DNA from: Eledone cirrhosa
Taxonomy: Eukaryota
Direction: 5' to 3'
DNA length: 64,000 bases
Assembly (NCBI GenBank): GCA_964016885.1
Contig: OZ024741.1
Span: 158,534,001 to 158,598,000 of the forward strand
The notes under the pieces were generated by a model. It was not told the DNA's origin. It did no database searches and saw only the letters and a program-made list of their open reading frames with translations. Shown here piece after piece: positions 11,486 through 43,060 of this stretch. A program made the translations under genes and the position numbers. Position 1 is the stretch's first letter. Each line of letters opens with the position of its first letter.

Positions 11486-11656
11486 AAATAAAGGATTATG
11501 AGTTCATGCAATTGACTTATGTTTCGTCACTATATATATATATATATATAGGTATTGAAGTTTCCGTTGAAAATTGAAAAAGTCATAGGAGTGAAGAGTG
11601 CTCTATGTAAGTGCCAGAGCTAAATTTAATGTATAATAAACAATACAATATAATTA

Positions 11657-11724
11657 CCTCATTACCAGAGGTTTCCCGAATAAGACGAATACGAAAAACG
11701 TCCTCATTCGTTCGTCGGATAAGG
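11657..11724 (-). ncRNA. Hammerhead ribozyme variant (CCGACGA core)
   Basis: Reverse-complement arm copy of 11795-11862. Confidence 0.65.
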
Positions 11725-11794
11725 CAATTTAAAACATAGTGAAATATTTGAAAAATCTCCTCAAGAAAGGCAAGTTTCACTATGTTTTAAATTG

Positions 11795-11862
11795 CCTTAT
11801 CCGAAGAACGAATGAGGACGTTTTTCGTATTCGTCTTATTCGGGAAACCTCTGGTAATGAGG
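11795..11862 (+). ncRNA. Hammerhead ribozyme variant (CCGAAGA core)
   Basis: ccttat-CCGAAGA-a[cgaatgaggacg..cgtcttattcg]g-GAAA-cctctggTA-atgagg; all three stems pair. Confidence 0.7.
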
Positions 11863-12000
11863 TAATTATATTATATTGTTTATTATACATTATATATATA
11901 TATATATATATATATATATATATATATATATATATATATATAGAGAGAGAGAGAGAGAGAGAGAGAGAGAGAGAGAAGTGGTTACACAACAGTTAGTTCA

Positions 12001-12050
12001 CCATATCGAGAACAATTGTTTCACCTTAGCGGATCCTCAGCTCGTAATGG
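12001..12050 (-). ncRNA. Hammerhead ribozyme (CTGAGGA core)
   Basis: Reverse-complement arm copy of 12080-12129. Confidence 0.7.
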
Positions 12051-12079
12051 ACATGGTTATACGGCCCGTATAACCATGT

Positions 12080-12129
12080 CCATTACGAGCTGAGGATCCG
12101 CTAAGGTGAAACAATTGTTCTCGGTATGG
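12080..12129 (+). ncRNA. Hammerhead ribozyme (CTGAGGA core, GUU site)
   Basis: ccattacgag-CTGAGGA-tccgctaaggt-GAAA-caattgTT-ctcggtatgg; palindromic stem III; stem II is short. Confidence 0.7.
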
Positions 12130-38769: not shown

Positions 38770-38990
38770 CCCTTTAGCATTTAAACCGGCCATATCCGGC
38801 CAGAATTATCTCACTCCTTCCTGTTCACACCGGCGATAACCGGCTGCTCATACTTATGTTAAGGTATTGGTCTCACCATAAATAATATCAAAGTCTTGTA
38901 GATCCGATATTATGTGAGATATTTATGTGAGATGAAGTATTTACTGTGAAAATACAATAGTAAATATAGAGTAATGTAAATGCTAAGGGG
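38770..38990. mobile_element. piggyBac-type MITE
   Basis: TTAA on both sides; TIRs ccctttagcattta / taaatgctaagggg. Confidence 0.85.
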
Positions 38991-39090
38991 TTAAGGTCTA
39001 AACGGGCATCAGTTAGTTTAGTTGGTGTGACGAATGAAATAGTCAAACATTTCAGACACATGTCTGATTATATCATAATCTCTATGGTGG

Positions 39091-39286
39091 CAGACCTATC
39101 AACTCTCTCCGTCCGACAGGGAGATCTCCCACCCACTTTGGGATGGGTGAGAGATGTCTTCTCTTGTGAAAATGGGTATAGCTTTCATTATGTAAAATCT
39201 CCCCATTTTGCCTCATTTCTCCCCATTTTGGGACACTTTTTTTTCATGGTACTCCCAGTTTAGGTTTTTAGAGGTTGACAGGTCTG
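39091..39286. mobile_element. TIR MITE (second copy at 62416-62558)
   Basis: TIRs cagacctatcaac / gttgacaggtctg; no clear TSD. Confidence 0.65.
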
Positions 39287-40929
39287 TAATGTGTAAGTGA
39301 CTGAGTATTTCATAGATACGTGTACCCTTAACGTAATTTTTATGGAGATTAAGCATGACACTGTGAGTTACAGGTACAGTCTATCTGATGGACTTCCAAA
39401 CTGTTTCCATCTACTCAATATGGTACTCCCTGTTTGGGTTTTCAGAGGTTGGCAGGTCTTATGGTGGATTGGCAGTATCGGTAGAGTATAGGGGAGAGAA
39501 CTGTCGATTATATTGACTGTAGCGACTGGTAGTTATTTGATTGTTTGTTTTTTTTCTATTGAAGAATAAGAAGTAAAATTGATCCCTTCAAAATGTATGT
39601 ATATATGAACCCGTAACTACTGGTGTAGTCGTAAGGGCACCGTGCTGACATATAGTGTGTTTACGCACTTTAAACCTGGCGAAGCCCATCCCCTCTCCAG
39701 GTCTGAACACAGCCTATTTCTTCTAGAAAATTTGAGAGAGCGGAGAAAGAGATACAGAAGAAGAAACATCCCGTTACTGAGCTGGTACTTTTTTCTCAAC
39801 CTCGAAAGGATGAAAAGCAAAGTTGACCTCGGTAGGTTTCGAATTGAAAGAGCAGAGAGCCATTAGGAATTACGCAAAGTTTTCTATCCGATGTTCTAAC
39901 GACTCTATAAATTCGCTGCCTCCCAGTAAGATAAGAACGACATTAACTAAAATGAACTAAACTAAATGCTACAATAAATTTGACAACTCTGCTCTCCCTT
40001 GACTAATACATTAAACCTCTTCTATACGGGACAATATAGAAGCCAAATCTATCTCAAATAACACACTACAGGGACGGTGGAACTGAGGGGGGTCAGAGGC
40101 CCCCCCCCCCCCATAATTATATTTTTATACCCAAGCTACCAAAACACACTTCTATATGCATATATAGGAGATGAATAAAATGGGTATAATACCAGTTCCT
40201 TAACAAATGCGAAGAAGCTCGCTATATTAACCCCTTAGAAAAGGGCACAGAGCATAATTCTTTTTTTAATTATATATATACAGTGGCGGTGGAACTGGGT
40301 GGGGCATGCCCCCTCTAATAATTATATTGTTTCCCCAAACTACCAAAACACACATCTATTTGGATATGCGCTACAATTTATGTACATGTTATGTTTATCG
40401 CACATCGAAGATTTCTAACCACCTTAGAATGCAAAGAGCTAAACTAATCAGTATAATTAAATTGACCTCCCCACATTCAGAAATGCTTCCGTCCCCACCC
40501 CTGCACTACCATGATAATTGTTTCTACTTTTGGCACAAGGCCAGCCATTATTCCAGTGCATTACTGGTGCTTTATTTTATCGACCCCGTAAGGAAGAAAA
40601 GCAAAGTTAACCTCGGCGGGATTTGAACACCTACTATAAAGGACCATAATTCTTTGCTGCAAAGCATATGATAATGACGGAAGGACGCCTTGAATATCGT
40701 AGTCCTATGACTGAATAAAAATTAAAGATAGGATAGTCACAGTTGGCGTGTCTATGATCATAGGTCTGTTTGATTATGGCTGGTCTTTAGATAAACAAAG
40801 ACATGAACAATAATTTAAAGACATTAAATATAACTGAGACAGCAAATCGCCGAAGGATTTAATTTTGACATCTCAGTTCCCGCCGATTTAGTAAGACGGT
40901 TACCTACAATATACTTGTGTTAATGTAAT

Positions 40930-41170
40930 CCCCTCGCTCTCTGACAGGTTTGCCATCGAGCCCGTAGCAGTGGAGACTTTTGGTGTCCTTGGCCCTAGGA
41001 CCACCTCCCTACTCACCACCATCGGCACAGAGTTGGCTACCCGCAGGTGTGAGCTTTGCGAGCTGGAATGGCTCTTCCAGCATCCTCACCATCCTCCGGG
41101 GAAACGCCTTCTCTATTCTATCCGCCGGGGCGACTGGGTGGCCAGTGCGTGGGCTCCCATCTGTTTATAA
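40930..41170 (+). mobile_element. CRE-like RLE 3' fragment
   Basis: AVETFGVLGPRTTSLLTTIGTELATRRCE; close paralog of ~1015-1235. Confidence 0.8.
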
Positions 41171-42807
41171 TAGTGAGAGATGGGGAGAGCGGAAGAGATG
41201 AAGGCAGTGATAATAGGAGTTTGGTTTCACTGTGTTCGGACCTGGTGAATATGTATATATTTATTTACCACACCACTTGACAAATAGTTCTTACGTAGAA
41301 TTATGATGAGAAGTTTCAACAGTTGATCTTTGTACCTTAGTGAGAAATGGTAGAGTAAATATTTTATTTTTCAAAGTAAAACGTATCCTTGTTTTCAAAA
41401 TTCAAACTCCAAGTTGTCAAGTTTGTCATTCACTGTCACGCTGAATATCCTCGAAAATTACGTTAAGGATGCATGTGTCTATGGAATGCTAAGGTACTTA
41501 CACATTAATTCTATGAGAAGGCTGTTCTATCGATTGAACAGCTGGAACACTCTTTCTTCTGACAACTTTAGGGTAAAATATCAAGGAGACGAGCTATTGA
41601 AAAACACGTCTAGCGAACGGTGACCACACCTGTTCGTTGCCAACGAAAAGCTGGACATGTAACCTCAATGCATAGTTGCGCATCATCAGCCACTGCATGC
41701 CCAGACTTCCACGTTGTGGGTGTCTCTCTGACTATAGAGCAGATGTCGCTGTGCGATGCAGTGATCCAGCCTCTGAAGCCGGTTGCTTTGAGAACAGCCG
41801 TCAGGTACCGATGCTCGTGTCATAATGATAATTGTTTCTAAACTTGACACAAGGTCAGCAATTTAAAGAGAAGGGGAAAGTCGATCATATTGACTTCAGT
41901 ACTTGACTGGTACTTATTTTAACGACATTGAAAGGATGAAAAGCAAAGTTGATCTTGATGGATTTGAACAAATGGGTTCTAATTTAGACACAAAGCCAGC
42001 AATTTTAAGAGGGAGGGGAAGTCGCCTATAATAATTCTTTCTATGACTGGCACAAGGCCAGCAATTTGGTGTAAGGGGAATGTTGATTATATTGACCCAA
42101 TACTTAACTGATATTTCATTTTATCTATCCCGGAAGGAAGAAAGGCAAAGTTGACATCGGTGGGATTTAAAATAATAATAATAATTGTTTCTACATTTGG
42201 CACAAGACCAGCAGAATTCTTTTGATTTGAGCCAACACCATATTTTTTAAGGGTATAGAAAGGAGATGTTATGGCGCCCTGGGAAGTGCTAGATTCAATA
42301 AAGGATTGCAAACACAGCAGAGTCTCAGCTTGCTTTGGAGACTTGCGTCTTGCTGTGTGCTAACCACCACCGCCAACACAGTTATCATCACTATCATGCA
42401 AATTTTTATTATCTTCAATACTTTATGCATGCATGGCGGGAATGCATTTCGGGTTTATCAATTCAAACACACACACATACACACACATACACATGCACAT
42501 ACAGGCAGACACACACATAACTCCTACACAGTCATGCACGTGACTCATCCATTCAGAGAAATACATATACATGCTAACTAATATCACCTCCTCCCACATA
42601 CATACACACGAGCCGACGTCTAAGATTCCGACATGCAACACAAAAACAGACACACATACACACATATACACACACATCAGATTATGCATAAAGACACCAT
42701 ACACAGACACACAAAGGTACAGCACTCGCCAAAGAGAGACACCTACACACAACACAACACATGCAGATAGATACATCACATATACGCATATATATATATA
42801 TATATAC

Positions 42808-43060
42808 GATATTAAACAAATGGAAACTATATTTATAAAACCATATTTATTTCGTTATATATATTTCTGGGATATCATATTAAAAATATGGTATGCCTTC
42901 CTCAGACAAAATACAATACATAAGCTGTTTTATAAATAATTGTGACATACCTTATAATAATGCAACTTCCATTTAAAAAGTTGCCAGAAACTGTTGAGTG
43001 CTTTTATATCAGTTATAAAATATTTACTCGTTGTAACCCAACAATTTTAAATAAAACTTT
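42808..43060. mobile_element. Single-arm hammerhead element related to D
   Basis: Left end matches 31663-31722; tail with gttGAGTGCTT at ~42996 resembles the tail of D. Confidence 0.7.
42850..42911 (-). ncRNA. Hammerhead ribozyme (CTGAGGA core)
   Basis: ttttgt-CTGAGGA-aggcataccatatttttaatatgatatccca-GAAA-tatataTA-acgaaa. Confidence 0.7.

Follow-up and report, generated by a model that had tools for sequence, protein, structure and literature searches.

Why does nearly the same eight-letter word recur in the tails of repeat families that otherwise share almost no sequence? The question is raised by a 64,000-nt stretch of the 3.0-Gb genome of Eledone cirrhosa (contig OZ024741.1, positions 158,534,001 to 158,598,000 of the forward strand; hereafter the window), in which Penelope-like elements (PLEs) are represented by two broken coding copies and some ten short fragments. 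A first-pass annotation, made from the sequence alone, had read the word as a quasi-palindrome, GAG(TG/CA/TA)CTC, and had proposed that it is a cis-element kept across diverged families, serving either as the site at which the reverse transcriptase (RT)/GIY-YIG protein sets its internal start or as an RNA dimerisation signal. Our analysis indicates that the word is the 3′ strand and flank of a predicted bulged hairpin, not a palindrome signal. The hairpin is present twice per element, between the hammerhead ribozyme and the start codon, and probably anchors the RT, each hairpin setting one of two internal starts.

The word and its upstream partner strand

All of the words reported by the annotation occur at the positions given for them in the window; the minus-strand word occupies 35331-35338, and GAGCGCT starts at 35159. 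The exact form GAGTGCTC occurred seven times on the two strands of the window, compared with 0.75 expected, and none of 100 shuffles reached this count. Two of the seven matches (45756 and 46368) had not been listed. The degenerate forms were uninformative alone, as GAGTRCTC with one mismatch gave 54 matches versus 55 expected. The sites are partly redundant: 34267 and 26106 belong to the same family (99%), 11596 is related to 18840 (75% over 104 nt), and 45756 and 46368 are tandem copies. The word at 11596 had been read on the antisense strand of its element; its sense form is GAGCACTC, as at 18840.

The TG/CA/TA variation arises because the first four letters pair with an upstream strand: GAGT pairs with ACTC, GAGC with GCTC, and GAAC with GTTC. 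This partner strand was found at 10 of the 11 sites of the annotation and is missing at 42996. The predicted hairpin consists of RYUC, a short variable stem-loop, a 2-nt bulge beginning with U, and GARY-ACU. The word had been placed about 20-40 nt beyond the end of the inverted arm; where such an arm exists in the window it does start 19-41 nt past the arm end, and across families it fell within 20-40 nt in 12 of 20. The tightly placed feature is the partner strand, whose distance from the arm end had a standard deviation of 7.7 nt, compared with 16.8 nt for the word.

Host elements

By the criteria of Craig et al. (2021; PMC8557442), applied here to sequence features, the host elements are Hydra-clade PLEs because they combine the DKT, RWK, and CxCx5C motifs with a GIY-YIG domain that is C-terminal and lacks CCHH, with a type I hammerhead pattern, and with (TA)n targets. 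The DKG-to-DKT change was present as HADKTNN both in the open reading frame (ORF) at 24395-25783 and in the sampled locus L028, which also contained the N-terminal RWK motif (RRMRWKAF). The linker CNCRNPESC, a C-terminal YIG without CCHH, and CKLC and CRH near the end are likewise Hydra-type. Pattern scans placed predicted type I hammerhead cores near the 3′ ends of the elements, and the insertions sit in (TA)n, a TA run at one end having been demanded by the scan itself. The named relatives of the window ORF were from Argonauta and Octopus. Uninterrupted Hydra-clade frames about 890 aa long also occur. The short fragments have the known head-to-head form, in which two 5′-truncated arms point outward, one ending at (TA)n and the other continuing through the tail.

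The clade as described in the accessible part of PMC8557442 shares these motifs and targets, and also tandem and inverted insertions with a one-sided tail. In contrast, the tails here were about 55-170 nt long versus 30-40 nt there, and the units of two families were about 3.3-3.5 kb, unlike those described there. A first guess of Naiad was rejected, the nuclease being C-terminal and the Hydra motifs present. The Pfam search did not recognise the four PLE frames of the window, and no relative was found in viral contigs. The Rfam search gave no hammerhead match to the window sequence; among the 150 listed of its 153 matches, none reached the gathering score and none was relevant over the hairpins, the matches being of low-score simple-repeat or hairpin type only.

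Hairpin survey across the genome sample

Sampling covered the four largest contigs, from which 140 stretches of 10 kb were taken at even spacing, together with the window (1.464 Mb in total). Without reference to the motif, we collected those inverted repeats in which a TA run bordered one outer end but not the other, giving 154 raw and 149 merged copies in 69 clusters, some of which are not PLEs. The hairpin descriptor began with RYTC, extended by 2-6 more pairs to a loop of 3-56 nt, and returned through a 2-nt bulge in the 3′ strand to GARY; its start had to lie at most 35 nt from the arm end. It matched 21 of the 69 tail clusters (53 of 149 copies), compared with 0.74 in 200 dinucleotide shuffles (maximum 4), whereas GAG(TG/CA/TA)CTC was found in only five clusters. 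The palindrome was not borne out as the unit. As further controls, the descriptor matched five clusters when read in antisense and 85 of 5000 windows drawn at random. The 2-nt bulge was specific, as assumed bulges of 0, 1, 3, and 4 nt gave 7, 4, 2, and 8 clusters, respectively.

The descriptor had been drawn by eye from the first 80 stretches, and the count of 21 is therefore not independent; in the later 60 stretches, it matched 9 of 43 copies. Cluster 67 is related to cluster 14, and cluster 63 represents the second hairpin in the family of cluster 13. The basal stem occurred as ACTC/GAGT, GCTC/GAGC, and GTTC/GAAC. Only one of 253 family pairs showed any BLAST similarity in the tail, which bears out the proposal of a cis-element common to otherwise diverged families. 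A Hydra-type ORF was linked to the hairpin-bearing clusters 0, 3, 5, 14, 21, 28, 34, and 59 and to the locus L116; the remaining hairpin clusters had no coding copy within the sample. The tailed clusters 4, 6, and 20/22 were tied to other nuclease types and had no hairpin.

Conservation and covariation in other organisms

An alignment of 31 Hydra-type proteins led to 86 loci from metagenomes and genome bins without host assignment, 49 of which had at least 100 nt 5′ of the ORF (42 once near-duplicates were merged). The hairpin was present in 34 of the 42 foreign 5′ untranslated regions (UTRs), compared with 4.4 after shuffling (maximum 9 in 60), 11 in the antisense orientation, and 2.5 for coding sequence; in the foreign 3′ regions, it was found in 27 of 69 versus 10.6. 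The foreign form was GCTC...T[T/C/A/G]GAGCACT, with GCTC/GAGC in 57 of 59 cores, and the bulge began with U in 47 of 47 cases (unfiltered, outside this genome).

The stem covaried. Upper pairs 1-3 were Watson-Crick in 81, 59, and 44 of 88 cores chosen blind to the upper stem, compared with 39, 23, and 22 after permutation, respectively, and none of 5000 permutations reached the observed values. In alignment A2, which holds 39 of 42 short-loop candidates (three were removed by hand, one with a doubtful partner and two for no stated reason), 94% of the cells pair, 38 cells are changed on both sides, a result reached by none of 500 shuffles, and the four basal pairs are invariant. These covariation controls ignore relatedness; the tails are otherwise unalignable.

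Inspection by eye of published Hydra consensus sequences located the hairpin in the coral Hydra-2_Amil and the sea cucumber Hydra-1_Ajap (twice) and Hydra-2_Ajap, and variant forms in the copepod Hydra-1_Crog. A 584-kb supplement contained six matches to T[TCA]GAGCACT, four of them in those Hydra consensus sequences. A covariance model built from the foreign loci only returned 17 window matches up to E 10, seven with E below 0.05; the top 13 all lie in PLE tails or in the tandem family described below and include 7 of the 11 annotated sites. We are highly confident from these results that the hairpin is a conserved structure. The invariant bulge U and the unpaired ACU flank suggest base-specific recognition.

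A second hairpin, copy ends, and tail length

The doubled motif in Hydra-1_Ajap led to the prediction that, in addition to the hairpin in the tail (H1), a second hairpin (H2) lies past the tail end. H2 was then found 2-9 nt beyond the tail end in families F21, F3, F13, F27, F0, and F14, in a relative of F59, and at L116, with a weak upper stem in F14. It was present in 15 read-through copies of F21, the family of site 26106, and in 10 of 10 F0 loci, one with an AA bulge and one with a G.U pair; the F0 loci had been chosen by a pattern that spans no more than the end of the tail and the four opening letters of the hairpin. A pattern for the short H2 gave 730 genome matches, mostly from one family, versus 3 for the control. 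At least two cores were found in 17 of 24 foreign 5′ UTRs that include the hammerhead, with a spacing of 54-82 nt in 23. Both hairpins are located between the hammerhead and the start codon.

Copies end just 5′ of one hairpin or the other, at site 1 (H1) or site 2 (H2). In five read-through families, 71 of 73 junctions fell within -4 to 12 nt of a hairpin start, windows that make up 13-15% of the reference sequences. The modal gap between end and hairpin had a median of 5 nt, and 22 of 28 sites were at 2-9 nt. Five informative foreign loci had gaps of 5, 3, 2, 4, and 4 nt; a sixth match was an internal TA run. Copy ends of F14 were scattered. Tail length matched hairpin spacing, with values of 100/99, 89/90, 88/84, and 167/165 nt.

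Inverted insertions used one site per arm. Among 105 insertions whose two outer ends both abut a simple repeat, site 1 was paired with site 2 in 100, site 1 occurred twice in one, an intermediate end was involved in four, and site 2 occurred twice in none. Asymmetric copies had led to the families in the first place, and the tail sequence was used to retrieve some of the loci; symmetric pairs could nevertheless have been counted. The longer arm ended at site 2 in 20 cases and at site 1 in 11, with 8 unclear, a noisy distribution. F0 also occurred in tandem arrays, each with four units that repeat about every 3.54 kb (C1:91476611-91487271 and C1:437200339-437210965, G000).

A model of two internal starts

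We put the probability that the hairpins anchor the RT and each set one of the two internal starts at roughly 0.6. Hairpin conservation and covariation, the duplication, the copy-end geometry, the agreement of tail length with spacing, and the use of one site per arm were observed, and the steps that follow carry in vitro results for the Poseidon clade over to Hydra. The protein would nick both strands of the (TA)n target, and each nicked end would be placed on U/A-rich RNA 2-9 nt 5′ of a hairpin, with the help of 0-5 nt of TA microhomology. H1 and H2 would be spanned by a protein dimer, and one cDNA would be started at each site. Growing from opposite strands of the target, the two cDNAs would be joined head to head, which would produce the inverted arms and the one-sided tail. 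The cis-element lies just 3′ of the copy end, and the putative binding site proposed by the annotation is plausible. The complete two-site RNA ruler, with a dimer on two tandem bulged hairpins of one RNA and two cDNAs from two nicked strands, would have a 25-nt motif found from corals to cephalopods dictate the tail, its family-specific length, and the inverted insertion; for this whole we would give slightly less than even odds.

For the Poseidon element PAc (Frangieh et al. 2024, PMC11167929), the accessible part of the paper reports that both target strands were nicked and extended in vitro, that the two tail boundaries corresponded to internal RT start sites, that RT depended on RNA located 3′ of the start, and that a dimer was modelled. 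All four features would be common to the Hydra elements. The binding motif of PAc was only bracketed to 172 nt, the RNA signal was left unnamed, and that part of the paper reports no duplicated or cross-family structure.

The small structures of known retroelements differ from the Hydra hairpin in arrangement. The 3′ stem-loops of long and short interspersed elements (LINEs and SINEs; R2 3′ UTR, UnaL2-type) are small RNA structures with a conserved loop or bulge, recognised by the element protein beside the RT start. The LINE stem-loop is single, is located 5′ of the start, and is carried over into each insertion, whereas the Hydra hairpin is 3′ of the start, uncopied from its own site, and present twice. 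In telomerase RNA, which serves a related RT family, a structure beside the internal template positions the enzyme, and repeat microhomology aligns the primer. The Hydra system lacks repeat addition and a template boundary, and any resemblance would be functional only.

The cause of the one-sided tail and inverted arms of Penelope-like insertions has been a long-standing puzzle since their discovery. The duplicated, covarying 25-nt motif near both ends lends itself to defined mutants and to prediction of dimer geometry, and if the model is true, the motif would be a portable handle with which to aim a telomerase-related RT at an internal RNA site. It can also serve as a sequence tag by which Hydra elements and their non-coding passengers are located and delimited, both being abundant in this genome (53 of the 149 tailed inverted ends over 1.46 Mb). 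The element class, the hammerhead, the tail, and the internal start were already known; the cis-acting hairpin, its duplication, and the one-site-per-arm rule appear to be new. No description of these three was found in the searchable literature, subscription papers and Repbase reports being outside the search. The accessible parts of PMC11167929, PMC8557442, PMC4209133, PMC3846280, and bioRxiv 2026.07.22.740005 contain no description of the hairpin, and that of PMC8557442 describes no tail motif for the Hydra clade.

Weighing the model against alternatives

Several results weigh against the model. The in vitro data come from another clade, in which the start lies in an AC-rich stem-loop within the ORF, a motif other than the Hydra hairpin (PMC11167929, accessible part). 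The cDNA from site 2 would need to displace that from site 1 or use another unit. The bulged register had a folding probability of only 0.13 and is disfavoured in free RNA, and 2 of 10 window hairpins (26062 and 31972) adopt another fold at minimum energy. By eye, two of the six published Hydra consensus sequences, Hydra-1_Amil and Hydra-1_Obim, have no hairpin. Continuations past the tail in F2, F8, F10, F19, F43, and F44 showed no second hairpin, the identity of these continuations as element sequence not being established. The gap between end and hairpin depends on the family, with outliers of -3, 0, 12, 14, 27, and 28 nt. In the non-coding 612-bp family described below, 24 of 26 ends precede an imperfect hairpin (C.C mismatch), and none precede the other two. 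Finally, folding is strand-symmetric (basal stem probability 0.93 sense and 0.94 antisense), and the strand evidence is modest, with 21 G.U versus 7 A.C at upper pairs 1-3 on the sense strand.

This symmetry would fit hairpins that act as single-stranded or extruded DNA and guide the GIY-YIG nuclease in nicking a few bases off when integration intermediates are resolved, the copy ends being cuts rather than starts. Such an explanation accounts for the same geometry and covariation. In the accessible parts of the sources, Craig et al. favour nuclease-mediated resolution as the origin of the tail (PMC8557442), and the D. virilis nuclease is cited as having required the tail in plasmid DNA (PMC11167929). 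However, the sole reconstituted system has tail boundaries that are RT starts on RNA (PMC11167929, accessible part), and the excess of G.U over A.C leans toward the sense strand. TA microhomology of at least 3 nt was present at 15 of 28 sites, compared with 7% in the nearby background, which fits priming. We consider resolution by DNA cutting unlikely, although it is the main rival to internal RT starts.

Should the hairpins instead direct RNA 3′-end formation, by cleavage or termination just 5′ of them, RT would start at ordinary RNA 3′ ends in a LINE-like manner. Ends 5′ of a hairpin and two end classes are consistent with this, but the near-constant pairing of site 1 with site 2 in inverted insertions would be left unexplained, the family-specific gap of 2-9 nt is loose for a nuclease, and the Poseidon protein starts internally on uncut RNA (PMC11167929, accessible part). 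This explanation appears improbable.

A role in expressing the downstream ORF, at the level of transcription or of translation (for example, cap-independent entry once the hammerhead has cleaved), would make the closeness of copy ends a by-product of AT-rich priming patches. Both hairpins are indeed 5′ UTR features, with the second typically 15-50 nt 5′ of the ORF match, and the sequence 5′ of the hairpins is AT-rich. Against this, hairpins are kept in the non-coding 612-bp family, and the ends follow them over a 76-165 nt range of spacings, with other AT-rich patches left unused, which leaves this role marginally the less credible of the last two.

That self-complementary GAGUGCUC dimerises two RNAs, or that a symmetric protein binds the quasi-palindrome in duplex DNA, is very improbable and was rejected, largely refuted by covariation: GAGUGCUC self-pairs at -9.6 kcal/mol and GAGNNCTC occurs in 34 of 59 foreign cores, but the self-pairing forms GAGTGCTC/GAGTACTC make up none of the 59 foreign cores and 2 of the 29 from this genome, the dominant foreign GAGCAC.. 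form self-pairs poorly (-3.9 kcal/mol), the 8-mer is in far fewer clusters than the hairpin (5 versus 21 of 69), its first four letters are occupied in the stem, and its last letter is variable (ACTC 30, ACTT 8, ACTG 8, and ACTA 4 of 59).

Elements and hairpins in the window

The first coding copy (8300-11530, plus strand; start approximate) is a 5′-truncated, frameshifted Hydra-clade PLE with an RT frame at 8512-9522, a linker and GIY-YIG frame at 9422-10117, a tailless end at (TA)n, and a type I hammerhead core predicted by pattern scan at 11435-11472 (plus). The second is an F21 Hydra element, the long arm of which (21701-25817, minus) carries a broken ORF (24395-25783 and 23200-23830), a hammerhead core at 21801, and a tailless end (site 1) at (TA)n. 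The short inverted arm of the same insertion, with a tail of about 100 nt (25818-26165, plus), has a hammerhead core at 25965 and ends at site 2. Its H1 (26070-26113, plus; annotated at 26106) has an ACTC/GAGT stem and a TC bulge, and H2 lies past the tail end in read-through copies such as L010 and L028. A second F21 insertion (33873-34322) has H1 at 34231-34274 (plus; annotated at 34267), where the form GGGT keeps the stem via a G.U pair.

An F14 head-to-head insertion occupies 11552-11892, with arms at 11627-11744 and 11775-11892, a minus-strand tail down to 11552, and H1 at 11596-11620 (minus; GCTC/GAGC, bulge TA). Its hammerhead-like cores at 11718 (minus) and 11801 (plus) are of the variant CCGA(A/C)GA, with C replacing the usual U at the second core position. 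H1 at 12162-12185 (plus; annotated at 12178) has ACTC/GAGT, a 4-bp upper stem, and a 1-nt bulge, with a hammerhead core at 12090; its family (12085-12221) was encountered in the genome sample by pattern scan. H1 at 18823-18847 (plus; annotated at 18840) has GCTC/GAGC and a TA bulge, with a hammerhead core at 18724.

Further H1 hairpins with ACTC/GAGT were found at 31550-31577 (plus; annotated at 31570; bulge TA), 31981-32005 (plus; annotated at 31998; bulge TC), 34447-34474 (plus; annotated at 34467; family F0, bulge TC), and 35331-35359 (minus; bulge TT). That at 31981-32005 lies inside a head-to-head insertion (31661-32068) with hammerhead cores at 31883 (plus) and 31756 (minus). The site at 35159 corresponds to a long-loop hairpin (35106-35166, plus) with ACTC/GAGC, one mismatch, and a TT bulge. 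Only the 3′ strand is present at 42996-43003 (plus), where the copy joins an inverted arm. A hairpin absent from the first-pass annotation (32360-32397, minus; GCTC/GAGC, bulge TT) is in a relative of the 612-bp tandem family.

The 612-bp family forms 2.7 tandem units at 45204-46882 (plus), with three hairpin-like sites per unit (45553/46165/46777, 45659/46271, and 45729/46341). The array stops 3 nt before the second, imperfect site. This young (99%), retrozyme-like, non-coding family had at least 40 genome matches, and nearly all of its arrays end at one site. No clear canonical hammerhead was found in it.

Other observations

Three observations concern hairpin-less or short tails. In cluster 1 (L057:7092, minus; L158:4844-4920), which has no hairpin, the tail contains GAGTGAG, and CTCACTC follows about 25 nt past the tail end, so that long-range pairing across site 2 is possible. 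In cluster 4 (L071:5785-5676 and L074:3718-3827), which has a CCHH-type nuclease, the same word ATATCG follows both end sites, and this suggests that a signal may be duplicated in other clades too. The 42-49 nt tails of clusters 12, 20, and 22 (L057:7547, L093:5841, and L031:9266) share the hairpin-like word TGCTTCAAG; clusters 20/22 are tied to a different GIY-YIG type. Hydra-type PLE ORFs were also found in bacterial genome-bin contigs (L278-L286), a location that most likely reflects contamination from the host animal.

Elsewhere in the window, a 5.5-kb low-complexity ACC/AAC array with very strong strand skew spans 2310-7780. The 3′ part of a non-LTR retrotransposon, encoding RT and C-terminal C2H2 fingers, lies at 20007-21458, with a relative at 54315-54800 (minus). 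A SINE-like repeat has many dispersed copies of 150-200 nt (22529-22719, 28589-28815, 38210-38420, 40513-40667, and 59221-62414) and is similar to a known cephalopod SINE domain. A short frame at 49128-49346 has the look, by eye, of what we take to be a signal peptide and the start of an integrin alpha chain, and the repeats may therefore lie in or beside a host gene.

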